From Candidatus Iainarchaeum sp. (GTDB lineage: Archaea > B1Sed10-29 > WALL01), in contig JAGMCR010000012.1 of assembly GCA_023129115.1 (NCBI GenBank), positions 1-64,000 on the forward strand: a DNA stretch of 64,000 nt, written 5' to 3'. Below the pieces are notes generated by a model. That model was not told the origin of the DNA. It searched no databases and was given only the letters and a program-made list of their open reading frames with translations. The position numbers and the translations under genes were made by a program. Below, piece after piece: positions 6,895 through 39,494 of the stretch (the stretch's first letter is position 1; each line of letters begins with the position of its first letter).

Positions 6895-6969
6895 GCTCCC
6901 GTAGTCTAGTCCGGTCAAGGATAACAGGTTCTCAACCTGTCGACGTGGGTTCAAATCCCGCCGGGAGCA
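6895..6969 (+). tRNA. tRNA-Glu(CTC)
   Basis: ACAGG-TT CTC AA-CCTGT anticodon arm. Confidence 0.93.
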
Positions 6970-6971
6970 TT

Positions 6972-7030
6972 TGCCTCTCGGGGGGCTTTATGCCCCCCAA
7001 AGTCTACCGCGCCAGCTCAGGTTTGGGCTG
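6972..7030 (+). mobile_element. tRNA-associated hairpin element (family A) with 16-nt direct repeat of the tRNA-Glu 3' end
   Basis: TGCCTCT-hairpin-AAGTCTACCGCGC-CAGCTCAGGTTTGGGCTG; AATCCCGCCGGGAGCA at 6954-6969 and 7031-7046. Confidence 0.7.
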
Positions 7031-7049
7031 AATCCCGCCGGGAGCACTC

Positions 7050-7112
7050 CAGCGTCCTGGGGGGCGCAGCCCCCCACTACCCTGGGAAGCGTCCCCCCAG
7101 GTGAGTAGGTAA
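7050..7112 (+). repeat. Dispersed repeat, family B copy
   Basis: CAGCGTCCTGGGGGGCGCAGCCCCCCACTACCCTGGGAAGCGTCCCCCCAGG closely matches the reverse complement of about 39250-39304. Confidence 0.75.
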
Positions 7113-7137
7113 GAGCTCGCTGTCGCTCGCGGCTTTT

Positions 7138-7222
7138 TGTCTCTGGGAGCCGCTAGGCTCCCAAGCCTAACGTGCTGTACCGTGAATCCCAACGGATTTG
7201 CGGTTGTCCTGAGTTTCAGGCG
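7138..7222 (+). mobile_element. Family A hairpin element (degenerate, with inner module)
   Basis: TGTCTCTGGGAGCC-GCTA-GGCTCCCAAGCCTAACGTGC...GAATCCCAACGGATT...CCTGAGTTTCAGG. Confidence 0.6.
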
Positions 7223-7262
7223 ATGGAAAAGGATTAAAAACGCGTAGTGAGTGAGGCTAGTG

Positions 7263-8084
7263 ATGAACCCGTACGTCGAGATAATCCGCCCCGTGAATGG
7301 CGTGATGGCCATGATAGCCGTTGCAGTGGGCTTCTTTGTCGCGGCCGGGCAGTTCGCCTTGCCGCAGGGGCTCTTCTTCGCCATGGCGTCCGCGTTCCTG
7401 ATTCTCTCGGCGGGAATGGCCATCAACGACTATTATGACTACCCCATCGACAGGAAGACCAAGAAGCAGCGCCCCATCCCGTCCGGGAGGATGGGCCTCG
7501 GGGCCGCGTGGAGGTACTCCGCCGTGCTGTTTGTGGCGGGCCTGGGCCTGGCGTTCCTCGTGAACATAGAGGCATTCGCAATCGCAGTAGTGGCAGCAGC
7601 CACGCTGTTCCTCTACGCCAAAGAGCTCTCCAAGAAGGCGTTCACAGGCAATTTCCTGGTGGCGCTGAACACCGCGCTGACGTTCGTGTTCGGCGCGGCC
7701 GTGGTTGGAGTGGTGTTCTCGGTCGAGGTACTGGCCCTCGCCGGGATGGCGCTCTTCGCGACCCTCGCGCGAGAGATTTACGGCAGCATCAGGGACATGA
7801 AGGCGGACAAGGGCACGCGCGAGACGCTCCCGATGAAGATTGGGGCCAGCAAGTCCATCATGATTGCCGCGTTCTCGATGGGCACCGCCATCATGCTCAG
7901 CCCAATCCCATACTGGGCAGGCGTGTTCGGCGGGACTTACCTCTTGCTCGTGGCACTGGTGGACGCGGGCTTTCTTTATGTGGTCTTGAACAGCTTCAAG
8001 ACGAAGAACTTCGCGCGGGAGGCGCATTACTGCAGGGTGTTCCAGATGGCCGCCCTCATCGCCTTTTTGGCAGGCGCGCTTTGA
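7263..8084 (+). CDS. UbiA-family prenyltransferase, probable digeranylgeranylglyceryl phosphate (DGGGP) synthase
   Basis: IIRPVN, INDYYDYPID..RPIPSGR, AREI..I.DMKAD motifs; multiple TM helices. Confidence 0.85.
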   Translation: MNPYVEIIRPVNGVMAMIAVAVGFFVAAGQFALPQGLFFAMASAFLILSAGMAINDYYDYPIDRKTKKQRPIPSGRMGLGAAWRYSAVLFVAGLGLAFLVNIEAFAIAVVAAATLFLYAKELSKKAFTGNFLVALNTALTFVFGAAVVGVVFSVEVLALAGMALFATLAREIYGSIRDMKADKGTRETLPMKIGASKSIMIAAFSMGTAIMLSPIPYWAGVFGGTYLLLVALVDAGFLYVVLNSFKTKNFAREAHYCRVFQMAALIAFLAGAL

Positions 8085-8155
8085 ACAAATGGGCAGCAAA
8101 AAGCGTTAGGCTTAAAAATGGTGTCCAACAAAACAATGGGTGCGAGGTAATCCTA

Positions 8156-8608
8156 ATGGAAAACGTTGACGATACTGACATAGCCATACTGCGTGCCCTC
8201 ATGAGGAACGCGAGGGCGTCCTATCGCGAGATAGCCCACGAAATCGGGGTGGCGGTTGGCACTGTCCAGCACAGGATGCAAAAGCTGGAGAAGAAGGGCA
8301 TACTCACGGGCTTCATCCCGGTGATTGACTATACCCAGCTGGGGTATGGCATCAACGCAATAATCGCGCTTCACGTCCCGAAGGAAAAAAACGACGAGCT
8401 CAAGAAAATGCTGAAGGAGAACCCTAACGTGAACAGCATTTACCACACCACCGGGGACACTGACATGTTCATCAGGGTCAAGTTCAAGACCGCGGAAGAG
8501 CTTTACAACTTCCTCACCAAGGAATTGGCTGACGAGTACGTCAAGAGTAGCAAGACGTACACCGTGCTCTACAAGTGGAGGGAGTACGGGAAGCTTTTGA
8601 AGGAGTGA
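8156..8608 (+). CDS. Lrp/AsnC family transcriptional regulator
   Basis: DDTDIAILRALMRNARASYREIA HTH; TTGDTDM in the RAM domain. Confidence 0.92.
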   Translation: MENVDDTDIAILRALMRNARASYREIAHEIGVAVGTVQHRMQKLEKKGILTGFIPVIDYTQLGYGINAIIALHVPKEKNDELKKMLKENPNVNSIYHTTGDTDMFIRVKFKTAEELYNFLTKELADEYVKSSKTYTVLYKWREYGKLLKE

Positions 8609-8614
8609 GCTGCA

Positions 8615-9064
8615 ATGGGACAAATCGAGTTCTTCGCTGACGCAGGAAAATTCAGGGCGGTCAAGAAGCTGAAGGTCGATGAAAACACCGAGCCCATGTT
8701 CGTCGCGCGGTTTTTGGCTTCTGTGCAGGACACGCTTGTGCGGAAGACGCGGGACTACATGGGCGGGGACCTGCCCATGGACAAGCTGGACGAGATTGTT
8801 GGAGAAATTTGTGGCGCGGAAAAGGGAAGAAAGGGCTGGAAGCTCAAGGGCCGGGTGAGCGAGGAAAAGATAGGCCAGTGCCTCGCGGCCGCGCGCGGCT
8901 CCAAAGCAACGCGCATGATTAACGAAGTGGTCGAGGGCAAGAAGGCGCGGGAGCTCGCGAAGGCGTATGTATTGCAGACCACGCTAAACGTGCTGGGGTT
9001 CCCGCTCGCGATTGACGCGAAGCTCTTCGAGAAGTTCCTTGAGGAAAAATCGTTACGGGAATAG
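8615..9064 (+). CDS. DUF2666-like hypothetical protein
   Basis: N-terminus IEFFA..GKFRAVKKLKVDENTEPMFVARFLASV resembles the archaeal DUF2666 family (from recall). Confidence 0.6.
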   Translation: MGQIEFFADAGKFRAVKKLKVDENTEPMFVARFLASVQDTLVRKTRDYMGGDLPMDKLDEIVGEICGAEKGRKGWKLKGRVSEEKIGQCLAAARGSKATRMINEVVEGKKARELAKAYVLQTTLNVLGFPLAIDAKLFEKFLEEKSLRE

Positions 9065-9116
9065 CCGCGTTTTTGCGGGTGCATTTATATTGCGCTAGTT
9101 TGATAACTAGCTTCGT

Positions 9117-9189
9117 GGGGTCGTAGGGTAGTTTGGCATCCTGCGAGCTTTGGGGGCTCGTGACCTGAGTTCAAATCTCGGCGACCCCA
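9117..9189 (+). tRNA. tRNA-Pro(TGG)
   Basis: CGAGC-TT TGG GG-GCTCG anticodon arm. Confidence 0.93.
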
Positions 9190-9190
9190 C

Positions 9191-9247
9191 TCCAACCCTT
9201 TTCCTGTGGCGGCTTCGCCGACCGGTGGAAAAGCGCTGGCGGAAAAG
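9191..9247 (+). repeat. Dispersed hairpin repeat, family C copy 2
   Basis: Same 17-nt start and CCGGTGGAAAAGCG block as 3735-3793. Confidence 0.8.
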
Positions 9248-9252
9248 AAGAA

Positions 9253-9336
9253 GCGGGGGTACCAAAGTGGACAAATGGGAGGGACTTAAGATCCCTTGGC
9301 TCAGTGCCTTCAAGAGTTCGAATCTCTTCCCCCGCA
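9253..9336 (+). tRNA. tRNA-Leu(TAA)
   Basis: AGGGA-CT TAA GA-TCCCT; long variable arm. Confidence 0.92.
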
Positions 9337-9458
9337 TCCCTCCAATTGCGATTGGAGCAACCGCAGACTAAAGCGGGGCCAAAGGCCCCGCAAATAGGCA
9401 TATGCCGCCGGGAGGCCTTGTGCCTCCCTCGTCGAACGTGCCAGCTGAGTTTCAGCTG
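9337..9458 (+). mobile_element. Composite family A element with duplication of the tRNA-Leu 3' end
   Basis: Ends AACGTGC-CAGCTGAGTTTCAGCTG; ATCTCTTCCCCCGCA at 9322-9336 and 9464-9478; 9365-9400 is an inverted near-copy of 14065-14101. Confidence 0.65.
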
Positions 9459-9491
9459 TTTGGATCTCTTCCCCCGCACGCCTTTTCTTGC

Positions 9492-9565
9492 GGGCCCGTG
9501 GTCTAGCTTGGATATGACTCAACCCTCCGGAGGTTGGAGCCCGGGTTCGAATCCCGGCGGGCCCG
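9492..9565 (+). tRNA. tRNA-Arg(CCG)
   Basis: CAACC-CT CCG GA-GGTTG anticodon arm. Confidence 0.92.
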
Positions 9566-12304
9566 CTATTTCACAATTTCTTGTTTATTGAATCCACCGC
9601 GACTGTCACAATACGTTGACGGTGCTTTGCCGAATAGCCTGGCTTTTTCTGGCAAGCCGTCGTGTAGCTTAAACCCCATTTCTTTCGCCTTTTTCTTCGC
9701 GAACTTGTGTATCAAGTCGTGCTGTCCGCTGCGGGAGCTGTAGACCCTGTCGAGGGCTAGCGCCCAATTGTTGCCTATCTTGATGAGGTGTAGCGCACCG
9801 CGGGCCTGAAGGCGCCCGCGCTCGTCGTATATCCCAATCACTTTTTTGGTGGCGTCTGCGGCAAAAGATATGAGCCCACGGTTATGTATGTCACTGCTCG
9901 ACCAAGACTGGCACGTGCCAAACCTCTCGCCAATGTTGTAGTACTGGGCGGGATGGAACGCGTCAGACATTACGTAGCTTTTGGGCTTAACGTTGAGTTC
10001 GTTGATGATTCTCGAGACCTGCGCCAAATGGTTCGCGGCAAGCTCCTGGCCCCCGTCACGGAGCCGGAGTATGAGCGAGCTCACCATGGATTGAGCACCT
10101 TTTCCGTCCTCCGCCCGGATTCTGACCTCGAGCTCACCAAGCTCTGGAGTCGGCGACACAAGGTGCTGTTTGCAGCCCTCGAGTTGGGCCAGCAGCGAAT
10201 CCACCGGGAACGCCTTTAGCTCCTCTTCCGTGGGCAAAACAGTTGTATGGCTTGTCTTGCGCCACTCCTCCGCAGCCTCCTTACTAAGCCCCTCATTCTT
10301 CATCAGCGTGTCAAGCTCTGAGTACTTCCAGTCCTCCAGCCCCCGCAGATTGGCGTACTCCTTGAGCATCCTCTGCACCAAGCCTTTTTCGATTACCCAC
10401 TTGTGCTGCCCATAATGCTTTATTAGCCTGTTGCTGATGCGCGCGAGGTTGAGGGACGCCTTGTCCCAGCGCTTCTTCGCCAAGAACTTTTTTGCCTCTG
10501 CATCAGTCATGTCGAACTTTTTCTGTACGCCGTTCCGCAGTTCTTCCTGCAGCTGTTTTATGGTTCTGGACAGTGGCTGGTTGTAGTCAATTTTGGCCTG
10601 CTTTTCCATCAAGTCAGAGTAAATATTGATTACCTGCGCAGCCCTTGGAATGTTCTGAACCTCTTTCTTGCCCTTGCCTGCTTTTTCCAAAAGGAGGCGC
10701 TCTATGGCTGGCTTGGTTGCTTTCGACACACTAAGTGCCTCGCTAATCCCCCTGATCCAATTCATGCTTCTCGCAGGCTTCTTGTCCAAAAGCTTAACGA
10801 TGGCGGTAGAGGTCTCATCACCAAGGTCAGTGAACAAGTTGCTGAAATCGCTGCAATTCTTGAGAGTATTTTCAAACCCGTGCACATCAATGAGCTTTGA
10901 CATCAAGTTAGGGCCAAACCGGTTTAGGTTCTCGAAGTACATTAAGCGCCAATCTACGGTCATGCCGCCGTAACCCTCTTGGTAGTTGTCAAGCAAGTCT
11001 TTTACGCTTATTTTTCCCCACAGCGCCTTCAGGTCGCCGTCGTGCCTGAACGTCTCGAAGAACCTTGAGTCCTCCATCTTGTAAAAAAGCTCTTTTTTGT
11101 CCTTCACTCCTGCGGCCTTCATCCATTCGGCGAGGCGCTCGCCAGAGACGTCTCTCAGGGAGTCATATAAGTGGTGGGAAGCATGCAACCAGTCGGCGTG
11201 CTGAATTAGCTCTTTCAGAATCTCGAGGGTGAGGGGGGCGCCAGTGAAGTCATGGAACTCCTTGAAGTTTTGTAGTGCGCTCCTAATGCCCTTCTCGAAT
11301 TCCTTGTTGCCTTTGAGCTTCAACCAGCCCTTGACCGGGATATCCTGTGTCTGTTCCTGCAGCCTTTTGTCGTTGGAGAACAGGTTGCTGTAGCCGCCGT
11401 TGACGAGCTTGAACACGAAGTCCTTGCCGTCTTTTGGCTTGAGCTCTTTTTCCCATTCCTCGCGGCGCTCTTGGGGCATGCCGCTGTAGCTCTGGGCCAG
11501 CTTCTCGAAATCATCGTGCTTGGAGATGAGCGTTATCAAGTCCTCCATCGTGAACTGTTCCTGCAGCTGCTTCGGGAACCGGTTTAGGTTCCCCACTATT
11601 CCTGCTAGGACGTTGGCGTTTAGGTTGTAGCGTTTGTCCTCCCGCCCGAAGTTCAGCAGCCCCATCAACTGGTCGGCAGTCGCGGTCTTCCGCACCTTCG
11701 TCGGCAGCTCCTTGACAGCTGGAATGACTGTGCGGTGCAAGTCCCAGAGCGCGACACTGTCGTTTGCAAGCTTCTCTTTCTGCTCCTCTGTGAACCGGTC
11801 GCTGAGGTACTTTGGCAGGCTGAAGAGGATTTTGTCGACGAAAACTTCGTTGCTGGTTTTGTCGAGGGCGAGGTCCATGAACTCTTCGGCGGTCAGCGTC
11901 TCTGCGATTCCGGGGAATGACTCCAGCCAGTGAGAGACGGAAAGCATTTTGCCGTATGCCCCTTGTTTTTGTAGCAAGGCCTTGACGTCTTCGAAGGAAA
12001 GGTTGTCGCGGATTTGCTTGGGCAGGTCCTCCAGTTGGTGTGGCAGGCCCACCAGCAAATGGACATTGTCCACATCTTTTAGGAAATCAACCACGTCGCC
12101 AGCCTTTGCCGTGCTCTGGACGCTTTTTGGCATTTTCGAGAACGAGTCCACTATGTATTCAAGGCCTCGGCTCTTTTTCTCCGCAAAGTCATTCATAATG
12201 TCGTTGGTGAAACTGTCCCGCGTGGCCTTTGGGAACTGCTTGATGTGATCCTTTAGCCATTTCTTGCGGTGGGCGCGCGCCCTCTTGCTTTGCACTGCTG
12301 GCAC
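9566..12304 (-). CDS. 912-aa hypothetical protein with N-terminal helical repeats and a C-terminal PcfJ/GNAT-like domain
   Basis: Long open frame; about 8 repeats of the form L..(F/L/M)PK..R....E....L; C-terminal IGE..GTCQ...VIGIYDERGRLQARG.L.L...LALDRVYS. Confidence 0.75.
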   Translation of the reverse strand: MPAVQSKRARAHRKKWLKDHIKQFPKATRDSFTNDIMNDFAEKKSRGLEYIVDSFSKMPKSVQSTAKAGDVVDFLKDVDNVHLLVGLPHQLEDLPKQIRDNLSFEDVKALLQKQGAYGKMLSVSHWLESFPGIAETLTAEEFMDLALDKTSNEVFVDKILFSLPKYLSDRFTEEQKEKLANDSVALWDLHRTVIPAVKELPTKVRKTATADQLMGLLNFGREDKRYNLNANVLAGIVGNLNRFPKQLQEQFTMEDLITLISKHDDFEKLAQSYSGMPQERREEWEKELKPKDGKDFVFKLVNGGYSNLFSNDKRLQEQTQDIPVKGWLKLKGNKEFEKGIRSALQNFKEFHDFTGAPLTLEILKELIQHADWLHASHHLYDSLRDVSGERLAEWMKAAGVKDKKELFYKMEDSRFFETFRHDGDLKALWGKISVKDLLDNYQEGYGGMTVDWRLMYFENLNRFGPNLMSKLIDVHGFENTLKNCSDFSNLFTDLGDETSTAIVKLLDKKPARSMNWIRGISEALSVSKATKPAIERLLLEKAGKGKKEVQNIPRAAQVINIYSDLMEKQAKIDYNQPLSRTIKQLQEELRNGVQKKFDMTDAEAKKFLAKKRWDKASLNLARISNRLIKHYGQHKWVIEKGLVQRMLKEYANLRGLEDWKYSELDTLMKNEGLSKEAAEEWRKTSHTTVLPTEEELKAFPVDSLLAQLEGCKQHLVSPTPELGELEVRIRAEDGKGAQSMVSSLILRLRDGGQELAANHLAQVSRIINELNVKPKSYVMSDAFHPAQYYNIGERFGTCQSWSSSDIHNRGLISFAADATKKVIGIYDERGRLQARGALHLIKIGNNWALALDRVYSSRSGQHDLIHKFAKKKAKEMGFKLHDGLPEKARLFGKAPSTYCDSRGGFNKQEIVK

Positions 12305-12394
12305 GAAATAATTTTATGTTCCCAGTGCCATATAAAGCCTCCTCAGCGCTCCAGAGGCAACTTTTATATACCCAAACCGAATAGGAGTAGTTGT

Positions 12395-12667
12395 ATGCCG
12401 AGTGAAGAGGAGCAGATTATCAACCTGATTGCGCAGGAGCTGATGGCGGGAAAGGGCCAGGGCGCCGTCATCAACGAGCTTGTGCAGGCGGGGCTGCCGA
12501 AGAACGAGGCGGCCACGGTTGTCAATGCAGTGGCGCAGCAGATTTCGCGCCGCGGCGGAGGCGGTGGCGGGGCGGCGCCGATGCCCCGCGGGGGCGGCAC
12601 GAACTGGGGCATGTGGATAATGATTGGCGCCATTGGGGTCCTTGTCTACATCATCTTCCTGGCGTAG
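12395..12667 (+). CDS. Small tail-anchored hypothetical protein
   Basis: TATA-like TTTTATATA upstream, helical N-domain, Gly linker, C-terminal TM helix. Confidence 0.75.
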   Translation: MPSEEEQIINLIAQELMAGKGQGAVINELVQAGLPKNEAATVVNAVAQQISRRGGGGGGAAPMPRGGGTNWGMWIMIGAIGVLVYIIFLA

Positions 12668-12706
12668 AAACGCTTAAATTCTATTCAGTCAAAAAGAGTA
12701 GCCACT

Positions 12707-12780
12707 GCCTCAGTAGCTCAGTTCGGTGGAGCGCTACCTTGGTAAGGTAGAAGTCGGGGGTTCAAATCCCTCCTGAGGCT
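12707..12780 (+). tRNA. tRNA-Thr(GGT)
   Basis: CTACC-TT GGT AA-GGTAG anticodon arm. Confidence 0.93.
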
Positions 12781-12813
12781 CTAAATCTTTTTTCTGTTAC
12801 GGCTACGTTTGAA

Positions 12814-12875
12814 TGTCTCTGGGGGGTGCCAGCCGGCACCCCCCAAGCCTACCGCGCCAGCTCAGGTTTGGGCTG
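12814..12875 (+). mobile_element. Family A hairpin element
   Basis: TGTCTCT-GGGGGGTGCC..GGCACCCCCC-AAGCCTACCGCGC-CAGCTCAGGTTTGGGCTG; degenerate flanking repeat AGGCT...CTTTTTTCT at 12776-12795 and 12876-12896. Confidence 0.7.
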
Positions 12876-12936
12876 AGGCTTTCAACGCTTTTTTCTCCAA
12901 AAGCTTAATATACCGTGGCTTGTTTTTTGTGTGTAG

Positions 12937-13161
12937 GTGATTTGGTTGAAAGTGAAATTCCACAAGCTTGACAAAAGCACAAGGCATTATTGGGTGTTCA
13001 GGCGCAAGGGAGAGGGAATCCTGATGATTTTCATTGGCGCCCTCTGGGCCATGCAAATCGCTGGGTGGTTCAGCATGATGCCATACGACGAGTACTTCGT
13101 CCCTGCAGTCCTCTTCGTTGCAGGGCTTATTGAAATCATCCGGGCTTGGCAGCACGAGTAA
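12937..13161 (+). CDS. Small membrane hypothetical protein
   Basis: Two predicted TM helices; upstream TTAATATA; start uncertain. Confidence 0.55.
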   Translation: MIWLKVKFHKLDKSTRHYWVFRRKGEGILMIFIGALWAMQIAGWFSMMPYDEYFVPAVLFVAGLIEIIRAWQHE

Positions 13162-13197
13162 CCCCCTTTTATAGTATCATTTGCATAAGTAAGCGGA

Positions 13198-13863
13198 ATG
13201 GAAGTCTTAGGTTTTGACTTGGTCTACCTGCTGGTTACGGTGGGGTTGGCAGTCGTGTTTACGCTTGCGGTGCTGACCATAATTGGGATACTTTTGGTGC
13301 GGCACTTCGACAAGACGGGCGTGGCGCTGTTCCCGAGGCTGTTCATGTTCATACTGAACCTCGTCGAGACCCCAATCAAGAACCTGCTGTGGCTGTTCAA
13401 CCTTGACGCCAAAACGCTTTTCCTCGTCCGCTCAAACCTGATTAACGCGATTTACAGGCACCGGTTCGCGGCAGTGCCGGTTAAAGAGCGCGCGATTTTT
13501 TTGCCGCAGTGCCTCCGCAACCAAAAGTGCCCCGCCAACACGGACGAGGAAGGCCTGCACTGCAAGGGGTGCGGCAAATGCGAAATCGCCGACTACAAGA
13601 AAGAAGCAGAAAAGCTGGGCTACAAGTTCTTCATCGCGCCCGGCGGCACCATGGTCAAGCGCATGATAAAGAAGTACCGCCCGAAGGCAATAATTGGCGT
13701 TGGCTGCGAGAATGAGATACAGATGGGCTCCGAAATGGCGATAAGGCACGGGATAATCCCAATGACCATACCCCTCGCCAAAAGCGGGTGCGTCAACACT
13801 ATCGTGGACTGGGACGAGGTAAGGAGAATCACGAACCTGACGCCCCAGAACGTGAACGATTAA
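13198..13863 (+). CDS. DUF116 family protein
   Basis: FLPQCLR..KCPA....GLHC..CGKC.I and IIGVGC...GCVNT.VD motifs. Confidence 0.88.
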   Translation: MEVLGFDLVYLLVTVGLAVVFTLAVLTIIGILLVRHFDKTGVALFPRLFMFILNLVETPIKNLLWLFNLDAKTLFLVRSNLINAIYRHRFAAVPVKERAIFLPQCLRNQKCPANTDEEGLHCKGCGKCEIADYKKEAEKLGYKFFIAPGGTMVKRMIKKYRPKAIIGVGCENEIQMGSEMAIRHGIIPMTIPLAKSGCVNTIVDWDEVRRITNLTPQNVND

Positions 13864-13892
13864 AAAGGCGGTTGCCTCAAAACTTGTTTGCT

Positions 13893-13997
13893 GCCGGCCT
13901 AGCTCAGTTGGTTAGAGCGCCAGACTCATAGGGTTTCAACCGATGGGTTGCTTCCGGAGACATCTGGAAGTCGCGGGTTCAAGTCCCGTGGCCGGCA
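13893..13997 (+). tRNA. tRNA-Met(CAT), elongator type, with 31-nt intron at 37/38 (13931-13961)
   Basis: GCCGGCC acceptor; CCAGA-CT CAT A[intron ...GAGAC]A-TCTGG; relaxed BHB. Confidence 0.88.
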
Positions 13998-14064
13998 CTC
14001 CAAGCCTTTCTTTAGAAAAGAAAGGCTACGGGCTACCCAAAGAAACTATTTGAATAATACAGCC

Positions 14065-14125
14065 TGCCTATTTGCGGGGCCGAACGGCCCCGCTTTAGTC
14101 TAACGTGCCAGCTGAGTTTCAGCTG
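14065..14125 (+). mobile_element. Family A hairpin element after tRNA-Met
   Basis: TGCCTATTT-GCGGGGCC..GGCCCCGC-TTTAGTCTAACGTGC-CAGCTGAGTTTCAGCTG followed by CCGTGGCCGGC (tRNA-Met 3' end copy, 14128-14138). Confidence 0.7.
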
Positions 14126-14148
14126 TTCCGTGGCCGGCGCTTAACCCT

Positions 14149-15531
14149 TCAATCCAGATTCTTGACAAGGTCTTCCAGAGCATCAAGTTCGCCCACCTGT
14201 TTGCCATACATCTTCAGTGCCAAGTCTGCCATAATCTCATCAGGAACTTTAGTTTCAAGACCGTACCCCGCTTTCTTCACTTCCTTTATCATCATGTCAG
14301 AAACAGTTTTCTTTTTCTTAAGCATTTTATGAAGAGGGTTGACAACATCAACATACCTATCGTGCATCAGTTCCTTGGAGAAGCTGAAGAACCTCTTGCA
14401 GTAGTTATAAACATCCTTATTCTCAAGCCCCTCGTATGCACTGTGGTACTGCAAGTGTCTCCTTACATGAGTATGTGGTGGGATATACACTGAGTTTCCC
14501 TCAACCTTAAAGGGTTTTTCCAGCCCAATCTCAGAGGGAATAACCTCCATGAAGTCCTGGTGAACCTTTCTTTGCGCATACTTCATCAGCACACTCATGG
14601 CAATCATGTTACTGAGAAAATTTGTATCTCCTGAACGCTGCTCCAGTGTGCCCAATTTATTTATCCTAACCGGTCCCCAGCAAAGATCGAGTATGCTCCT
14701 ACATTTTTTGATATCTTCAGGAGAAACGCCCTGCTTCTTCAGTTCCCTCTTCACCCTGTTATACCTACTCTCCATAGTATATATCAAATCAGTGAGCGTC
14801 TGCTTGTAGGGTGGCAGCCCACCGTACTGCTGGAATCCAGTGTATTGTCCCTTCATGTATTTCAGTGCCCTGCCCCCCCTATTAATCACAACCCTGGAAT
14901 CCTTTGCCAGGAACTTGCCGTCGACAAAAGGAGAGGATTGCAGGAACGTAATGAATACTGGGTCCATAGCTATGGCCAGATTATAACTGTCTATCAAAGT
15001 TTTCTTGATCTTGGGCCCTAACATGGGCTTCAGGAACTTCTTTTTCTTATCAAACACTCCACGGGGCAAAGTATAGTGGCAGTGAAATCCGAGCGTCCTG
15101 CTTCCCAGCCTGTTTTTTTCAGCACCAACCAGTTTCTCGTGCATTATGTATCGATTATCTCTTCTCATCTCTTCCTCAAAGTAGCCAGGATATGTAGAAA
15201 GCGGGTAAATCAGGATGTTGTGCCCTTCGGCAACTTCAATAAGCGTCTTATAGCTCTTTATTATATCTAGTGCAATGTTCTGAACCTTTACAGATGGGAA
15301 GGAAGTGAGCTCGACCATATGTTTTGCTTCTTCTTGTACAATGGGCATCTCTTTATCTCTCTTCTTGCATTCCCTGATAACCAGGTCTGCTTTGTTTACA
15401 ATATAGCCTTTCTCATCCAATGTTTGAATCTCAATCTCAATGCCTGTTTTTGACCTCTTAAGAGGAGATTTCTCTTTCTTTTTAATTTCAGACCCCTCCT
15501 TTTGGTTTCTTGAACCTGAATAAATCCTCAA
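14149..15531 (-). CDS. Glutamate-cysteine ligase family (GCS2-like carboxylate-amine ligase)
   Basis: GIEIEIQTLD, EEAKHMVEL, GFHCHY, SSPFVDG..AKDSR, WGPVRIN.LGTLEQR; AT-rich; start uncertain (TTG 15531 or ATT 15486). Confidence 0.8.
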   Translation of the reverse strand: MRIYSGSRNQKEGSEIKKKEKSPLKRSKTGIEIEIQTLDEKGYIVNKADLVIRECKKRDKEMPIVQEEAKHMVELTSFPSVKVQNIALDIIKSYKTLIEVAEGHNILIYPLSTYPGYFEEEMRRDNRYIMHEKLVGAEKNRLGSRTLGFHCHYTLPRGVFDKKKKFLKPMLGPKIKKTLIDSYNLAIAMDPVFITFLQSSPFVDGKFLAKDSRVVINRGGRALKYMKGQYTGFQQYGGLPPYKQTLTDLIYTMESRYNRVKRELKKQGVSPEDIKKCRSILDLCWGPVRINKLGTLEQRSGDTNFLSNMIAMSVLMKYAQRKVHQDFMEVIPSEIGLEKPFKVEGNSVYIPPHTHVRRHLQYHSAYEGLENKDVYNYCKRFFSFSKELMHDRYVDVVNPLHKMLKKKKTVSDMMIKEVKKAGYGLETKVPDEIMADLALKMYGKQVGELDALEDLVKNLD

Positions 15532-16600: not shown

Positions 16601-16825
16601 CAATAAGCCTCTTAATCTTATTCTAGCTTCTTGTGTTGAAATAGTTAACGGTCTGTTGCAAGTTGCCGGCACTGATGCTTAGCTCAATGTGCCCGTGGCC
16701 GGCACTTTTTCTCGGCAAGGCTTAGTCAATACAAGTTATAAACACCGAATCCCTAAGGCCCAACAGCTAGCTAATCCATAAAAATAACATAAGATTTATA
16801 TATGTGAATATAGCATAAAATTAAC

Positions 16826-17077
16826 ATGAATATTAGTATGCATTTTGAAGGTTTTATGGAAGAAATAATCGAGAGGCTTTTGGAACAAGGAATCGCAAAA
16901 ACAAAGGCTGAAGCACTCAGGCTTGGATTGCTGGAGTTGAACGACAAATACCAACTAGTCGGGATAGACAAGGAATTGAAAGCAGATATACTCGAGATAA
17001 ACAGGATTGATAGGGACATCAAAACAGGCAAAGAAAAAGTGTATTCTGTCAAGAATGTTGATGAGCTGCTGGCATGA
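16826..17077 (+). CDS. Putative antitoxin
   Basis: Small protein overlapping (ATGA) a RelE-like gene; C-terminal DIKTGKEKVYS typical of RelB-type partners. Confidence 0.7.
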   Translation: MNISMHFEGFMEEIIERLLEQGIAKTKAEALRLGLLELNDKYQLVGIDKELKADILEINRIDRDIKTGKEKVYSVKNVDELLA

Positions 17078-17319
17078 AAATCAAAAGAACAGATACATTC
17101 AAAAAAGACATCAAAAAACTGGATTCCCAAAGCAAAAAAATTCTTGGAAAAGTAATTAAAAAAATTCTTGCCAGTCCAGAGAGATTCAAGCCAATGAAAT
17201 ACCATTCAAACATATTCAGAATCAGGTTCAGTAAATTCCGGTTGGTCTACAAAGTTGACCAAGACTTGATTACGTTCATGTTCGTAAGAAAAAGGCCCAC
17301 GGCATATAGAAATGTATGA
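17074..17319 (+). CDS. RelE/ParE family toxin
   Basis: FKKDIKKLD...FRIRFSKFRLVY...VRKR..AYR. Confidence 0.85.
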   Translation: MKIKRTDTFKKDIKKLDSQSKKILGKVIKKILASPERFKPMKYHSNIFRIRFSKFRLVYKVDQDLITFMFVRKRPTAYRNV

Positions 17320-17370
17320 CTTTTCGAGACTTGGGTTACGTGTGTGCCCATTGCCAGCACGTCTTTCTGT

Positions 17371-17601: not shown

Positions 17602-17625
17602 GGAAAACGAGTTAAGGAATGAGGG

Positions 17626-21318: not shown

Positions 21319-21357
21319 ACGCGTTTTTAATGAAATCGGGGTATAAAAGCTTGCACC

Positions 21358-23493: not shown

Positions 23494-23508
23494 TTTCACA
23501 ATTAGGGT

Positions 23509-23595
23509 TGCCTCTGGGCACCCTTGCGGTGCCCAAGCCTACCGCGCCACCTGGCGAATCCCCAAGGATTGTCGGGGCAGCCCAGGTTTGGGCTG
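23509..23595 (+). mobile_element. Family A hairpin element with one inner module
   Basis: TGCCTCT-GGGCACC..GGTGCCC-AAGCCTACCGCGC-CACCTGGCGAATCCCCAAGGATTGTCGGGG-CAGCCCAGGTTTGGGCTG, then GGACCCA (tRNA-Pro 3' end copy). Confidence 0.7.
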
Positions 23596-25357: not shown

Positions 25358-25568
25358 TGTCTCTGGGGGCTTTATGCCCCCAAGCCTAACGTGCCACCTG
25401 GCACCTGGCGAATTGCGCTAGGCAATTGCCGGGGCAAATCCCAAAGGATTGTCGGGGCATAACGTGAATCCCGCAGGACCTGGCGAATCCCACAGGATTG
25501 CCGGGGCACCTGGCGAATTTCCCAAAGGAAAACGCCGGGGCATTCTCGTTTGAGCTGAGTTTCAGCTG
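25358..25568 (+). mobile_element. Expanded family A element carrying a tandem array of inner hairpin modules
   Basis: TGTCTCT...AAGCCTAACGTGC + 4-5 CCTGGCGAAT-N-ATTG(C/T)CGGGG modules + AGCTGAGTTTCAGCTG; flanked by AATCCCGGCGGGGGCGC (25341-25357) and AAACCCGGCCCGGGCGC (25569-25585). Confidence 0.7.
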
Positions 25569-25625
25569 AAACCCGGCCCGGGCGCTCGGGGAGCCGTGTG
25601 CTCCCCTCCCCTCGTGGGTTCTAGT

Positions 25626-29614: not shown

Positions 29615-29619
29615 TTGGC

Positions 29620-32268: not shown

Positions 32269-33489
<1,221 letters not shown>

Positions 33490-37432: not shown

Positions 37433-37493
37433 CGTTAATAAACCACTAAATTAAAAACAAAGGAGTTTTCTTTCGTTTAAAGGAGGGAAGAAT

Positions 37494-38759
37494 ATGGCAG
37501 AGAAACCACACCTGAACCTCGTTTTCATTGGCCACGTGGACCACGGGAAATCCACCCTAGTGGGCAGGATCCTGTACAACACCGGCGCGGTCGACGAGAA
37601 CACTATGAGGAAGCTAAAAGAGGAGGCTGAAAAGCTCGGAAAGGCGACTTTTGAGTTCGCTTTCGTGATGGACAGGCTCAAAGAAGAGCGTGAACGTGGA
37701 GTCACCATCGACCTTGCGCACAAGGAGTTTAAGACTGACAAGTATTACTTCACGATTATTGACGCGCCGGGCCACAGGGACTTCGTCAAGAACATGATTA
37801 CTGGCGCCTCGCAGGCAGACGCTGCGGTGCTGGTTGTTGACGTCAAGGACGGCGTCCAGCCCCAGACCAAGGAACACGCGTTCCTTTCCAGGACTCTGGG
37901 CATCAAGCAGCTGATTGTCGCAATCAATAAGATGGACGCGGTCGACTTCGCTGAAGACAAGTACAACGATGCCAAGTCGGCGGTCGCGACGCTGCTGAAG
38001 ACCATCGGGTACAACACGGACCAGATTCCGTTCATCCCGACTTCGGCTTATGCGGACGCGAACGTGACCGCCAAAAGCGACAAGATGGGTTGGTACAAGG
38101 GGGTCATACTGCTGGACGCGCTTAACACGCTGACAGTGCCCGACAAGCCCACTGGAAAGCCGCTCAGGCTGCCTGTGCAGGACGTCTACACCATTACCGG
38201 GATTGGCACAGTGCCGGTTGGCCGTGTCGAGACCGGTGTGCTGAAGGTCGGGCAGGCCATCGTTGTTTCGCCTTCGGGCGCAAAGGGCGAGGTCAAGACC
38301 ATCGAGATGCACCACCAGCAGATGCAGGAGGCCGGCCCCGGCGACAACGTCGGGTTCAACGTGCGTGGCCTCGGCAAGAATGACGTCAAGCGCGGTGACG
38401 TAATTGGCTCGGCAGACAGCCCGCCGACCGTCGCCAAGGAGTTTATTGCACAGATTGTGGTGCTACAGCACCCGAGCGCGGTTACGGCTGGGTACACTCC
38501 GGTGTTCCACTGCCACACTGCGCAGGTCGCGTGCACTTTGGTTGAGCTCCAGAAGAAGCTTGACCCCAAGACGGGTGGCGTGCTCGAGGAGAACCCCAAG
38601 TTCTTGAAGACGGGCGACGTCGCAATCGTCAAGATTGTGCCGACCAAGCCGCTTTGCATCGAGAGCGCGAAGGACTTCCCAGAGCTCGGACGGTTCGCCG
38701 TTCGTGACATGGGGCAGACCGTCGCCGCCGGAATGGTGCAGAGCGTGACTCCGAAGTGA
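37494..38759 (+). CDS. tuf: Translation elongation factor aEF-1alpha
   Basis: [28 protein letters not shown]. Confidence 0.98.
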
Positions 38760-38763
38760 AACC

Positions 38764-38797
38764 GGAGGGATTTCTTCCCTCCCCCCTTTTAATTTTC
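38764..38797 (+). terminator. Possible hairpin plus T-run after tuf
   Basis: GGAGGGA-TTTCT-TCCCTCC then CCCCTTTTAATTTT. Confidence 0.35.
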
Positions 38798-38808
38798 AGG
38801 AATGATAG

Positions 38809-39129
38809 ATGATGACGCAGGTCGCGACCGTGAAGCTGACTGGGCCGGACTTCAAGAGACTGGACAGTGTATGCAACCAAATCAAGGACATTTGCCAGAA
38901 GACTGGTGCCAAGGTCAGCGGGCCGGTCCCCCTGCCCACGAAGAAGCTTAAGCTGCCCGTCAGGAAAAGCCCTTGCGGCGACGGGTCTGAGACGTTCGAG
39001 CACTGGCAAATGAGGATTCACAAGCGCTTGCTCAACATCGAGACCGACGAACGCACGCTCAGGCAGGTCATGAGGGTGCAAGTGCCTGACCAGGTGCACA
39101 TCGAAATCGAGCTCAAGGAAAGCTCTTGA
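38809..39129 (+). CDS. rps10: 30S ribosomal protein S10 (uS10)
   Basis: GPVPLPT, RKSPCGDG, MRIHKRL. Confidence 0.97.
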   Translation: MMTQVATVKLTGPDFKRLDSVCNQIKDICQKTGAKVSGPVPLPTKKLKLPVRKSPCGDGSETFEHWQMRIHKRLLNIETDERTLRQVMRVQVPDQVHIEIELKESS

Positions 39130-39203
39130 GCCCCTTTTTCTGCAAGGTTTTTTTATAGGGTAGTGCGAAGAATAAACCCACTCAAAGCTGAGGTGGCGGA
39201 ATC

Positions 39204-39303
39204 CAGCTGAAATGTCAGCTGGCACCGTGTGCCTTCGGCTACTATCCACTAGCCTGGGGGGGTGCTTCCCAGGGTAGCGGGGGGCTGTGCCCCCCAAGAC
39301 GCT
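39204..39303 (-). mobile_element. Family B/A hybrid element upstream of tRNA-Ser, duplicating the tRNA 5' end
   Basis: Minus strand reads family B body then GTGC-CAGCTGACATTTCAGCTG; GCTGAGGTGGCGGAATC (39187-39203) vs GCTAGGGTGGCGGAATC (39304-39320). Confidence 0.7.
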
Positions 39304-39388
39304 GCTAGGGTGGCGGAATCCGGTTAACGCGCGCGCCTCGAGAGCGTGTGGGGGCAACCCCATGCAGGTTCAAATCCTGCCCCTAGCG
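39304..39388 (+). tRNA. tRNA-Ser(CGA)
   Basis: CGCGC-CT CGA GA-GCGTG; long variable arm; G73. Confidence 0.92.
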
Positions 39389-39394
39389 CTCAAT

Positions 39395-39454
39395 GCGCAT
39401 TAGGGCACTCGTCCGGCCTTGTGCCGGACAACGTGCCAGCTGAGTTTTCAGCTG
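39395..39454 (+). mobile_element. Family A element with 19-nt exact duplication of the tRNA-Ser 3' end
   Basis: GTCCGGC-CTTGT-GCCGGAC-AACGTGC-CAGCTGAGTTTTCAGCTG; CCTGCCCCTAGCGCTCAAT at 39376-39394 and 39462-39480. Confidence 0.75.
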
Positions 39455-39494
39455 GTTTGAACCTGCCCCTAGCGCTCAATCCCTGGTGAGACTT

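Follow-up and report, generated by a model that had tools for sequence, protein, structure and literature searches.

Among the characterized transposase classes, we know of only the IS1634 group as one in which the length of the target duplication varies as much as described below, and this group has inverted repeats. Template switching is not known to us to generate some 50 copies of one family in which both ends are precise. Integration into tRNA genes yields partial tRNA copies that begin in a loop and extend as far as the 3' end, according to the passages on such integration in PMC9897764 and PMC2853133. We analyzed a window of 64,000 nucleotides from Candidatus Iainarchaeum sp. (assembly GCA_023129115.1, contig JAGMCR010000012.1). 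In this DPANN-type archaeon (genome of 1.25 Mb), a gene-less, hairpin-forming mobile element of 60 to 210 nt, designated E, is present in about 50 copies, mainly at the ends of tRNA genes. Unlike the IS1634 group, E has no terminal inverted repeats, as stated in the original prediction.

In most copies, the 5' end of E adjoins the terminus of an intact tRNA gene, and its terminal hairpin is next to a second, partial version of this terminus, here called an echo, which repeats the final 13 to 26 nt of the tRNA (Table 1). The end of a protein gene replaces the tRNA as the target in three cases, also with an echo. When the sequence was read at the ten sites originally listed, the motif was present at all of them, wholly or in part. 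A search of the window for the terminal hairpin with up to 3 mismatches gave 5 matches where 0.24 were expected, a number that none of 100 shuffles reached. Exact or 1-mismatch hairpins lie at 9442, 14109 and 25552, and variants at 7013, 12858, 23578, 32271(-), 39204(-) and 39437. Across the genome, 50 terminal hairpins with 21 sequence variants were found, and nhmmer with the 10 window copies as the query gave 258 matches, merged into 94 intervals on both strands. The earlier count of about 10 copies represents only the window's share of these. The proposal of a single repeated family without ORFs at many different tRNAs was borne out. E matched no Rfam family, as a search suggested at the outset showed, and had no match in the phage, plasmid or viral collections.

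Table 1. Features of the window, with E copies numbered by position
Feature	Position	Strand	Remarks
tRNA-Glu(ctc), intact target	6895..6969	+	ARAGORN; Rfam tRNA 64.4 bits
E copy 1, minimal: TTTGCCTCT, GC hairpin, linker AAGTCTACCGCGCC, terminal hairpin 7013-7030	6970..7030	+	Both hairpins fold, -26.3 kcal/mol
Echo of tRNA-Glu positions 58-73 (AATCCCGCCGGGAGCA)	7031..7046	+	16/16, score 32
Module A (CAGCGTCCTGGGGGGCGCAGCCCCCC...GGTGAGTAGGTAAGAGCTCGC...TTTT)	7050..7137	+	
E copy 2, one inner hairpin, degenerate terminal hairpin 7205-7222	7138..7222	+	Nearly identical A+E composite at G000:C12:84650-84831
Module F (CCCTTTTCCTGTGG..hairpin..GGTGGAAAAGCGCTGGCGGAAAAG) behind tRNA-Pro(tgg)	9191..9252	+	
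tRNA-Leu(taa), intact target	9253..9336	+	
E copy 3: two 5' hairpins, linker, terminal hairpin 9442-9458	9337..9458	+	
Echo of tRNA-Leu positions 54-73 (TTTGGATCTCTTCCCCCGCA)	9459..9478	+	20 nt, 15 exact inside, score 30; only differences C56>T and A58>G
E copy 4, behind tRNA-Thr(ggt) and F remnant 12782-12813	12814..12875	+	Repeat (12876-12896) degenerate, score 20
F-like module and E copy 5 (14065-14125), behind intron-bearing tRNA-Met 13893-13998	13999..14125	+	
Echo of intron-bearing tRNA-Met 3' end (TTCCGTGGCCGGCGCT)	14126..14141	+	Score 24
E copy 6 behind tRNA-Pro(cgg), one inner CCTGGCGA..GGGGCA hairpin	23508..23595	+	
E copy 7, longest, 211 nt, four or five inner hairpins	25358..25568	+	Apical stems of inner hairpins compensatory; 93% identical copy at G000:C2:19704-19915
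Echo of tRNA-Asp 3' end (AAACCCGGCCCGGGCGCT), 18 nt	25569..25586	+	3 mismatches (15/18), score 21
E copy 8, within last bases of 885-aa ORF 29611-32268 (putative rpoA)	32271..32354	-	Repeat gagTATGACTAAa (32258-32270) and gaTATGACTAAg (~32361-32372), score 26
E copy 9, A-type 5' part, terminal hairpin 39204-39221, upstream of tRNA-Ser(cga)	39187..39303	-	Echo of tRNA-Ser(cga) positions 1-17 at 39187-39203, score 24
E copy 10 (39395-39454) and 26-nt echo (39455-39480)	39395..39480	+	Echo of tRNA-Ser(cga) 3' end and 5 trailer bases; 19 exact within 26 nt; score 38

E consists of a variable 5' GC hairpin, a conserved linker (CTAACGTGCC; consensus ..CTA(A/C)CG(T/C)GCC) and a terminal hairpin of 6 to 7 bp, with inner hairpins and the upstream modules A and F as optional parts. 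The 5' hairpin is of at least four interchangeable types, where a single consensus had been proposed; it folds in 24/24 minimal copies despite differing stem sequences. The terminal hairpin is kept through compensatory changes, and its structure is under selection. Its stem has A-T, G-C or G-T at position 2, G-C or C-G at position 3, T-A, T-G or C-G at position 5, and G-C, C-G or T-A at position 6. In 20 of the 24 minimal copies, the minimum-energy fold contained it as a separate hairpin. Of the 10 columns that are invariant in the alignment, 9 belong to the linker and the terminal stem. Both ends of E are defined, the 5' and the 3' end within each subfamily, and a T-run is often found upstream. 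The element limits first proposed were in places too narrow: the repeat-flanked unit is sometimes larger and takes in module A or F (e.g., 13999-14125 and G000:C12:114636-114778). Module A is a second repeat family, often directly behind tRNA ends, including those of tRNA-Gly(tcc), Arg(tct), Val(tac), Leu(caa) and a pseudo-Thr; the module F family occurs in both orientations, in G000 and G001. Chimeric double terminal hairpins (C5:40451, C5:68726 and C1:62087) and tandem echo-E arrays (C9:44341-44536 and C1:39044-39348) were also found.

The flanks of E were scored for repeats (match, +2; mismatch, -3; cutoff, 22). Genome-wide, the right flank repeated the sequence left of E in 27 of the 49 copies tested, compared with 0/49 for the flank 100 nt further on and 4/49 when the highest score from 20 shuffles per copy was taken, an excess well above chance; about 22/49 copies had no repeat. 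The distance from the terminal hairpin to the repeat was 0 to 5 nt in most of the 27 copies. In the window, six of nine scored copies reached 22 and two more had a visible, degenerate repeat, which agrees with the grading in the original prediction. No flanking repeat was found at E copy 2 (7138), and the repeat at tRNA-Pro(cgg) was below noise in the flank test, with only a deleted remnant (cttTGGACCCAc, 23596-23607). The repeats are long and variable, as predicted (12 to ~55 nt). In a strict test, a 13-nt copy of tRNA positions 61-73 was sought downstream and was present at 13/44 tRNAs in the window genome (G000), 6/15 (G001), 4/35 (G002), 3/18 (G004) and 1/7 (metagenome contigs); the tRNA 3' end sought upstream as a control gave 0 matches in G001 and G004. 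All 24 strict echoes start inside the 7-nt T-loop and end at the discriminator, some up to 9 nt beyond, a pattern of one fixed and one floating border. None of the 14 tRNA 3' echoes in G000 had an inverted E. Opposite polarity was seen in 2 of about 30 repeat-flanked copies, one at the rpoA end in the window (E copy 8, one of two cases with the hairpin end against the intact gene) and one upstream of tRNA-Ser in L102. The same architecture was found in three other genomes and six metagenome contigs. It is not an assembly artifact, a concern raised with the prediction, since metagenome contigs agree with the window: a 16,376-nt Logan contig (run X1) covers 7193-23568 and a contig from another sample (X3) covers 14020-14433, each with zero differences.

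Relatives were then compared for empty alleles, as originally suggested, and hold empty sites with a single target copy. The sites at tRNA-Leu(taa), Thr(ggt) and Met are empty in G002. E copy 7 is missing at tRNA-Asp of L098, where the post-echo flank lies directly behind the tRNA, and E copy 10, at the 3' end of tRNA-Ser(cga), is missing in L102 and G002. Conversely, tRNA-Arg(ccg) is filled in G001 and G002 and empty in the window genome. Occupancy is species specific at 10 or more tRNAs. Since related genomes do not share all insertions and some sites are empty, E is mobile or was so until recently. At the read level, neither a free intermediate nor empty alleles within a population came to light. 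Upstream of tRNA-Ser(cga), the 5' echo has retained the acceptor sequence GCTGAGG, also seen in the relative L102, whereas the gene itself now has GCTAGGG. This echo is therefore a fossil of an older acceptor stem, and echoes are relics that do not coevolve with the tRNA.

The echoes differ from their tRNAs mostly in the T-loop. In the 13 echoes starting at T54-T55, 24 of 39 cells at positions 56-58 were unlike the tRNA (counted by inspection), with C56 changed to T, A or G in 10, A57 to G in 4 and to T in 3, and A58 to G in 7; G57 was unchanged in 5/5 cases. The same echoes differed in 2/52 cells at positions 54, 55, 59 and 60 and in 2/169 at positions 61-73. This pattern is common to three unrelated element families and three genomes. 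Echoes starting at 58-61 have errors at C61, so the errors may merely track the junction. Two Leu echoes of one family in G004 both read TTCGAAT, yet one of the tRNAs reads TTCAAAT; the common sequence is consistent with a tail that came from the donor. At the tRNA-Arg(tct) locus, a second E is followed by a tRNA-Leu-type echo (G000:C5:68705-68719), and at least four C7 copies have a common right flank of about 35 nt without any local repeat. The repeats had been described as target-site duplications. They are real, but their origin from a simple staggered cut is doubtful, given the fixed start in the T-loop, the errors at three positions by the junction and at least one echo of a different tRNA.

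E may be a lineage-restricted, non-autonomous element without an ORF that acts as a folded single strand and is copied in by target-primed or template-switching insertion, a reading to which we give about an even chance. New copies would arise by copying, without excision. A 3' end at or just past the end of the target gene would be extended on an E template. Synthesis would pass the terminal hairpin, sometimes continuing a few bases into the donor flank, and would resume on the target 12 to 55 nt upstream, in tRNA genes at the T-loop, a hairpin loop and the sole stretch common to all tRNA genes. The target end would thus be written twice. Such target-primed or copy-choice insertion would be strand specific and carried out by factors supplied in trans, with the linker and terminal hairpin probably signaling recognition or pausing. 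The long repeats would permit tandem amplification by recombination, and precise loss is possible in principle. From sequence comparison, we infer that copying is favored over staggered cutting by the variable repeat length, the fixed and floating borders and the uniform orientation, together with the junction-near errors, the carried donor flank, the chimeric hairpins and the tandem arrays. The two copies of opposite polarity, the copies that have no repeat and the lack of precedent for such a family made by template switching speak against this reading.

Classical DNA transposition, which we consider unlikely, would require a trans-acting transposase or nuclease that recognizes the two different ends of E. 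The target would be nicked twice, within a hairpin loop (T-loop or D-loop) and just past the gene; E would be inserted, and gap repair would duplicate the target. This would fit the defined ends of each subfamily, the clean pairs of empty and filled sites, and the repeats that mostly adjoin E directly; a structure-specific nick would also give the invariable echo start in the T-arm loop. That the linker is conserved from one subfamily to another suggests a protein with sequence specificity, and a dedicated transposase would fit equally well. However, the duplications are too variable for characterized transposase classes other than the IS1634 group, comobilized donor flanks and a foreign echo are unexpected, and gap filling would not be expected to leave junction-near errors. 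No reverse transcriptase, Y1 transposase or Cas1 was found in the genome (88.6% complete), which has one tyrosine recombinase/integrase, and its only high-identity multicopy ORFs are two TnpB pairs. TnpB was rejected as the mobilizer, as its ends are unrelated to E. The mobilizing gene could sit in the missing part of the genome, on a virus or plasmid, or in a host cell.

It is distinctly unlikely that the echo arose at the RNA level as a DNA copy of a modified tRNA. Here, the 3' end of a processed tRNA or other RNA would act as primer or template, and a copy spanning the tRNA 3' end to the T-loop would enter the gene by recombination over 13 to 16 nt of identity. In archaeal tRNA, GCD14/TrmI-family methyltransferases and Trm56 make m1A57/58 (thence m1I57) and Cm56, and the genome encodes both enzymes. 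The substitutions gathered at positions 56-58, the constancy of G57 and the single pattern in unrelated families and genomes are consistent with copying of such a tRNA, and the 5' end of E is often at the discriminator base, the RNase Z cut site. Nevertheless, none of the 13 genomes searched within the order yielded RVT_1, which also speaks against the SINE-like retroposition first envisaged. Opposite-strand echoes of tRNA 5' ends and echoes of protein-gene ends cannot derive from modified tRNA, and some repeats include genomic trailer bases. The C61 errors and the TTCGAAT tails may instead reflect the junction and the donor, and we know of no misincorporation caused by 2'-O-methyl C.

We regard as very improbable, and already weakened, the view that E and its echo are the attR of a decayed plasmid or virus, or a mini cis-mobilizable element moved by integrases. 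Partial tRNA copies from loop to 3' end are a textbook outcome of integration into tRNA genes, and a genuine array exists on C12, where the 24.3 kb downstream of tRNA-Thr(cgt) contain 7 copies of its last 15 nt; an integrase gene lies among them, the core is bordered by inverted repeats, and three E copies sit at att copies. These integrase-type att copies, however, differ in flanking architecture and lack the E-type errors. E is a single family at more than 15 tRNAs with unrelated cores, and also at protein-gene ends and intergenic sites, in a genome with one integrase; its 5' end is precise and adjoins the tRNA, and no larger element has left a remnant there. A family seen at many different tRNAs does not represent a single integrase's att site, as had been argued from the window. 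Scarcely credible is the idea that E, A and F are duplicated, immobile host RNA modules (trailers, terminators or processing signals) with a functional echo: E at gene 3' ends is oriented as the upstream gene in all cases seen but one, often behind a T-run and with maintained hairpins, but occupancy differs between sister species, echoes decay without following tRNA changes, copies also lie upstream of genes, antisense and in a low-GC island, and no Rfam family is matched.

The placement of E at tRNA ends may reflect either "safe haven" selection or true targeting, both of which fit. E together with its tRNA-end copy lies outside every described class of prokaryotic mobile element.

The original prediction was that about 10 structured inserts in the window form one family of small mobile elements. 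Reading the sequence of all ten cited sites confirmed a shared architecture, and these elements are real; the total in the genome studied (G000) is larger, at about 50 copies. The element, which we call E, is 60 to 210 nt long and carries no open reading frame. At the ten window sites its 5' part consists of (T)TG(C/T)CTCT, a GC-rich hairpin and the linker AAG(C/T)CTA(A/C)CG(T/C)GCC. An optional middle part follows, with 1 to 5 inner hairpins of the form CCTGGCGA-stem-GCCGGGGCA plus a GAATCC..GGATTC unit, and the 3' end is the terminal hairpin CAGCTGAGTTTCAGCTG or a co-varying version of it. As first proposed, terminal inverted repeats are lacking: the 3' CAGCTGAGTTTCAGCTG is not the inverted counterpart of the 5' (T)TG(C/T)CTCT with its GC hairpin. 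The exact terminal hairpin was strongly over-represented, with 5 matches versus 0.24 expected, and none of 100 shuffles reached 5. When the ten window copies were used as nhmmer queries against the whole genome, 258 hits were obtained, which merged into 94 intervals. In a genome-wide fuzzy search with five hairpin variants, the element orientation yielded 50 terminal hairpins, which represent 21 different sequences.

The structure of E was assessed by folding copies one at a time and by tabulating the terminal stem position by position. RNAalifold predicted no pairs on the MAFFT alignment because the variable 5' hairpins were misaligned. The 5' hairpin folded in 24/24 minimal copies, and for 20 of these the minimum-energy fold also had a separate terminal hairpin. 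The stem pairs of the terminal hairpin varied at position 2 (A-T/G-C), position 3 (G-C/C-G) and position 6 (G-C/C-G/T-A), and the stem is maintained through compensatory change. At least four unrelated sequence types of the 5' hairpin were found, and nine of the ten invariant alignment columns were in the linker and the terminal stem. Therefore, E has a constant part, the linker and the terminal hairpin, and a 5' part that can be exchanged. A and F, two other repeat families, were frequently found between the tRNA gene and E, at times inside the repeat-flanked unit. Module F seems to be a second mobile family that shares the insertion signature. In another genome, G001, a reverse module F starts with the T-arm-like CGTGGGTTCCAGTTTCCG and sits behind a GC hairpin after tRNA genes, followed by a partial tRNA copy. 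At 25395-25545 of the window, inner hairpins of the long form of E (CCTGGCGA-apical stem-GCCGGGGCA) are arranged in tandem. Their apical stems differ yet are complementary (AATCC/GGATT, AATTGC/GCAATT, AATTTCC/GGAAAA), each unit ends with GGGGCA, and in copies 6 and 8 single units seem to have been inserted behind GCCA. These units may represent a still smaller, nested insertion unit.

The G000 assembly comprises 1.25 Mb in 19 contigs and is 88.6% complete; the window, with 13 to 14 tRNA genes, makes up the first 64 kb of its contig C4. The nearest named relatives of this genome bear the labels 'Nanobdellati archaeon' and 'Archaeon isolate SAG', so it belongs to a DPANN-type lineage; the archaeon is reduced and probably symbiotic. 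BLAST found E-type sequence in 4 of 41 relatives. Among the 31 genomes available for the phylum, E-type sequence was found in 3, with a single fixed-length pattern covering the 18-nt hairpin form only. E is present in at least three related genomes, and related phenomena occur in a sister genus. Searches of plasmid, phage and viral-contig collections each returned no E.

Direct repeats had been predicted to flank most inserts. We aligned the 30 nt to the right of each terminal hairpin with the 400 nt to the left, with a cut-off score of 22. This score was reached by 27/49 copies, versus 0/49 for an offset control in which the flank was taken 100 nt further on, and 4/49 in the best of 20 shuffles, in agreement with the prediction. 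The repeats were 12 nt long at the shortest (CTCCCGAGGCTC, contig C12) and 16 to 26 nt at tRNA genes; the longest, of about 42 and 55 nt, were at the ends of two protein genes. The copy that abuts the terminal hairpin, which we call an echo, is a partial direct copy of the end of the target gene, mostly a tRNA 3' end. In a strict test from the tRNA side, tRNA positions 61 to 73 were sought again within 460 nt downstream. Echoes were found for 13/44 tRNAs in G000, 6/15 in G001, 4/35 in G002, 3/18 in G004 and 1/7 on metagenome contigs, and a reverse control gave 0 in G001 and G004. The same test gave 0/4, 0/6 and 0/2 tRNAs in G005, G009 and G006, samples too small to infer absence. ARAGORN found 6 tRNA genes each in the approximately 220 to 260 kb sampled from G005 and G009, and only 2 in the 322 kb sampled from G006, a genome of the same order (loci L144-L163); the G006 genes may be unassembled or unusual (split or intron-rich). 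Further echoes, degenerate and weaker, were seen for Asp, Thr, Pro, Asn and Leu-caa. Four tRNAs had an echo of their 5' end upstream of the gene, with the element on the opposite strand. A CCA stood behind the echo where the gene copy lacks it in 5/24 echoes, against a baseline of 13 CCA-encoding genes among 123 tRNA genes in these genomes; in 2 of these cases the trailer itself belongs to a longer degenerate repeat, and the CCA is given no weight as evidence. The partial tRNA genes created by echoes confuse tRNA annotation. Assembly artefacts were ruled out as the source of the duplications by independent contigs: one from the probable source run spans 7193-23568 with zero differences, and another, from a different sample, spans the Met element and its echo.

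E is mobile, and its occupancy is species specific. Orthologous empty sites with a single target copy, the check proposed with the original prediction, were found. G002, which is syntenic with G000 at about 80% DNA identity, has no element after tRNA-Leu(taa), Thr(ggt) and Met, and it has one after tRNA-Arg(ccg), where G000 is empty. In the metagenome contig L098 a GC hairpin directly follows tRNA-Asp; in the window the same hairpin comes only after a 211-nt element and its echo. The 3' element of tRNA-Ser(cga) is absent from a second metagenome contig, L102. According to a table of echo occupancy across genomes, at least 10 tRNAs carry an insertion in one species and lack it in another. In read mapping, no clean joint that removed one element and one repeat was found, and no empty allele was seen within the population; the joints obtained connected different E copies or tRNAs by repeat cross-mapping. 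L102 still has the acceptor sequence GCTGAGG, which in G000 survives in the echo upstream of tRNA-Ser(cga); the G000 gene itself has changed to GCTAGGG, and its 3' side has changed to compensate. Echoes are therefore fossils that date from the insertion, and they do not evolve together with the tRNA as functional partners would. The 3' echo of the same gene already carries the new acceptor sequence.

Several features bear on how E inserts. In 14/14 tRNA 3' cases in G000, the 5' end of the unit pointed toward the intact tRNA and its 3' end toward the partial copy; in 12 of the 14, this 3' end was an E-type terminal hairpin. The tRNA 5' cases follow the same rule after rotation, and two exceptions were seen, one at the end of an 885-aa ORF (the rpoA-end copy) and one in L102. 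The echo started inside the seven-base T-loop in 24/24 strict cases, 13 of them at T54-T55 and the others at 54 to 61, and its far border was the discriminator or, in some cases, up to nine bases past it. By inspection, the 13 echoes starting with TT differed from the tRNA at positions 56 to 58 in 24/39 cells, at positions 54, 55, 59 and 60 in 2/52, and at positions 61 to 73 in 2/169. In echoes that start later, the error tends to fall at C61, and in repeats outside tRNA genes the mismatches also tend toward the first few bases behind the hairpin. At the tRNA-Arg(tct) locus a second E is followed by an echo of tRNA-Leu type, and on the low-GC contig C7 at least four E copies share a right flank of about 35 nt without a local repeat. 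A donor flank can thus travel with E. Chimeric copies with a second half-hairpin behind the first were also found, as were tandem echo-E arrays. The strand bias of E relative to GC skew and gene orientation was mixed, for example with agreement on C4 and C2 and disagreement on C7.

The polarity, the one fixed and one floating border, the clustered errors, the donor flank and the chimeras and arrays point to insertion by copying with template changes (target-primed or template-switch), not by a cut with a fixed stagger; this is our preferred reading, and we give it about an even chance. A 3' end near the end of the target gene would be extended on an E template, and synthesis would then go back to the target further upstream, in tRNA genes at the T-loop. 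Apart from the T-loop, no sequence is shared by all tRNA genes; the T-loop is also the loop of a DNA or RNA hairpin. Mre11/SbcCD cleaves hairpins. A conventional transposase, for which no candidate was identified in the genome, is an unlikely agent; we rank it second, as conservation of the linker hints at a protein that recognises a specific sequence.

The search for an enzyme covered several families. Reverse transcriptase (RVT_1, PF00078) was absent from G000 and from 13/13 genomes of the order, one of them 98% complete; the control search found it in 3 reference genomes, and divergent or imported enzymes could escape this search. Neither Y1 (HUH) transposase (PF01797) nor Cas1 (PF01867) had a match in G000, and one tyrosine recombinase gene was found there. 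An all-against-all comparison of the 3,656 ORFs of G000 revealed no insertion sequence related to E; the only high-identity repeats were two pairs of TnpB genes. No nhmmer hit to E lay near these four genes, and their 3' flanks are unlike E. One TnpB-type gene adjoins a GCD14/TrmI-type methyltransferase gene. A four-member paralogue family beside some E copies looks by eye like membrane antiporters, not recombinases. Rfam at gathering thresholds returned only tRNAs. At E <= 5 on 6800-40000, the only matches besides tRNAs were five weak ones, spread over three unrelated families; four of them fell on tRNA genes, and the fifth shared just the last 10 nt of an element copy. E thus matched no covariance model of a known family, including those of self-cleaving ribozymes.

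Alternatively, the echo might not be a target-site duplication on DNA but a DNA copy of RNA, either a mature tRNA with its modifications or the 3' end of another RNA. The RNA 3' end would prime E synthesis, the return strand would be copied back into the RNA up to the T-loop with misreading of Cm56, m1I57 and m1A58, and the product would be fixed in the gene by short-homology recombination. The error-prone positions coincide with the bases modified in archaeal tRNAs (Cm56, m1I57, m1A58), and G000 encodes a GCD14/TrmI-type enzyme and Trm56. The A->G changes at 57 and 58, a G57 that is always kept and a correct T54-T55 are a possible outcome of copying modified tRNA, and the same error pattern recurs in G001 and G004 with unrelated element families. 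However, the RVT_1 result argues against this proposal, echoes of tRNA 5' ends and protein genes exist, the error position moves with the junction, and the tail of one family seems to be donor inherited (G004 Leu-caa, Leu-tag). We consider it improbable. If true, it would mean RNA-primed, RNA-templated insertion in an archaeal lineage without a recognisable reverse transcriptase, and the echoes would be a genomic record of tRNA modification. The retroviral primer-binding site is regenerated by copying the 3' end of the primer tRNA up to m1A58. The likeness, a DNA copy of a tRNA 3' terminal segment ending in the T-loop at modified bases, is an analogy only: the copy made with E is found on the downstream side of the element, mostly has no CCA and in many cases extends as far as T54, and no reverse transcriptase is known in the lineage of E.

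E shares features with several known systems and fails a defining feature of each. Integrase att sites have one specific core per integrase, with integrase-binding inverted repeats around it. Contig C12 carries such an array, in which inverted repeats GGCTCTACAGCCGTA / TACGGTAGTAGAGCC flank the core and three E copies are located at att copies. This array is a classical integration hotspot, and E does not resemble it. An integrase att scar or a mini cis-mobilisable element was rejected, since more than 15 tRNA cores, protein-gene ends and intergenic sites stand against one integrase with its own att array. According to the available part of PMC9897764, which cites Williams 2002 for the att duplications of tyrosine integrases, tRNA-integrating elements likewise leave an intact tRNA on one side and a partial direct copy from a loop (for E, the T-loop) to the 3' end on the other, and several successive insertions stack at one tRNA. 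Unlike the elements in that part of the source, E has 60 to 210 nt and no gene, the same E occupies over 15 unrelated tRNAs as well as sites outside tRNA genes, its repeat length varies at small and large scale, and the copy has clustered T-loop errors.

SINEs and other non-LTR retroposons insert by target-primed reverse transcription, and the TRE elements of Dictyostelium target tRNA genes. E is alike in its lack of inverted repeats, strict polarity, conserved 3' end with variable 5' modules, clustering at tRNA genes, variable target duplications, one specific and one floating border, and carry-over of the 3' flank. The suggested SINE-like behaviour therefore stood for these features and failed for the enzyme, with RVT_1 in none of the 13 genomes. 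Unlike SINEs, E is prokaryotic, has no A-rich or simple-repeat tail, is not demonstrably tRNA derived, and inserts into the tRNA terminus itself, not tens of bases away.

Casposons are archaeal, insert at a tRNA or protein gene 3' end and duplicate that end; they have terminal inverted repeats and a nearly fixed duplication of 14-15 bp and encode Cas1 and PolB. E shares the archaeal host, the gene 3' ends and the gene-end duplication; in contrast, Cas1 is missing from G000, E has no inverted repeats, and its duplications range from 12 to about 55 nt. MITEs have inverted repeats matching those of a transposase-encoding IS and short fixed duplications, and REP and IS200/605 elements depend on the Y1 enzyme and leave the target unduplicated. 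Apart from the IS1634 group, which has inverted repeats, no characterised transposase class is known to make duplications nearly as variable as those of E. Like MITEs, REP/BIME, IS200/IS605-derived palindromes and TnpB guide-RNA ends, E is small, intergenic, hairpin rich, non-coding and trans dependent. Unlike MITEs, it has no terminal inverted repeats, and its repeats, of 12 to about 55 nt, are not short and fixed; unlike REP and IS200/IS605, it has duplications, and Y1 is absent from G000. The predicted distinction from MITEs, casposons and IS200/IS605 is thus borne out. A TnpB guide-RNA end was rejected, since the four TnpB loci have unrelated ends and a guide matching the neighbouring tRNA would target the intact gene, as was an integron attC-like or Xer site, since only 3/13 junctions fit GTTRRRY by eye and E is not an overall imperfect palindrome.

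The available part of PMC2853133 (Kobayashi group) describes 'insertion with long target duplication' of restriction-modification genes, with variable long duplications and no transposase, repeats that often overlap the 3' end of a gene, and a mechanism not known to its authors. The insertions in that part are bacterial kilobase gene cassettes, each unique, with repeats of >30 bp (45-420 bp in the tables), and no archaeal case passed the filters of the study. E falls in this descriptive class by its empty sites, long variable duplication and lack of a mobility gene; unlike those insertions, it is a repeated family of 60 to 210 nt, and most of its repeats are below the 30 bp used there. No description of such an element was found in the literature searched, with poor coverage of subscription journals and supplements, in line with the prediction that no such system is recognised in archaea. 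Per that literature, no mobile element of the form that E takes has been described for prokaryotes.

Other loci were noted during this analysis. A kilobase-scale insertion with target duplication lies beside the small one at tRNA-Met; between its two echoes (14149-16672) there are GCS2-like and N-formylglutamate-amidohydrolase-like (FGase-like) genes and no mobility gene. The syntenic region of G002 lacks a 912-aa ORF of the window and has instead, between tRNA-Leu and tRNA-Arg, an ORF that by eye resembles a nitroreductase. On C7, a low-GC island at 66000-73000 (contig GC 0.516) has five genes each preceded by a common unit, in the order conserved stretch of about 35 nt, inverted E copy and TATA-like AAAAAGGCTTTTATA. 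By eye, the C7 ORF at 71983-73059 has the look of an HTH and Vsr/DUF559-type endonuclease, and that at 60034-61890 of an OLD/AAA ATPase.

Coordinates of features in the window and on other contigs (C) of G000; L015 contains loci of G001
Feature	Location	Strand	Details
Longest repeats (~42 and ~55 nt)	C5:40451 and C9:44341-44536		Protein-gene ends
Module F (CCCTTTTTCTGTTAC..hairpin..GGTGGAAAAGCGTTGATGGAAAA)	Window 9191-9252, 12782-12813, 25587-25660; G001 loci in L015	Both orientations	
912-aa ORF	Window 9566-12304	(-)	Between tRNA-Arg(ccg) and tRNA-Thr(ggt); no Pfam family
Second tRNA-Met 3' end copy (GCCCGTGGCCGGCAC)	Window 16691-16705		2.7 kb downstream of gene; region 13999-16705
Ordinary integration array	C12:74872-99214		Seven recurrences, within 24.3 kb downstream, of the final 15 nt of tRNA-Thr(cgt)
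Tyrosine-recombinase gene inside att array	C12:78765-79238		
TnpB-type (Cas12f1-like_TNB) genes	C3:10561, C3:79611, C3:102282, C13:134192		Two pairs of 80-84% identity

Overall, the predicted family is real and larger than first described. To our knowledge, known prokaryotic mobile elements have recognisable transposases, integrases, Cas1 or reverse transcriptases and make short fixed duplications or none. E has about 50 gene-less, polar, hairpin-built copies and lands on tRNA gene ends, rewriting their last 13 to 26 bases, and no such enzyme was found. If insertion occurs by target-primed or template-switch copying, E would be a prokaryotic counterpart of SINE behaviour, and structured repeats would be able to spread via host replication and repair functions alone. 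If the T-loop errors reflect modified tRNA, they would imply RNA-templated DNA synthesis without a canonical reverse transcriptase. The echoes are also markers of strain-level polymorphism, usable for population studies of uncultured DPANN archaea.
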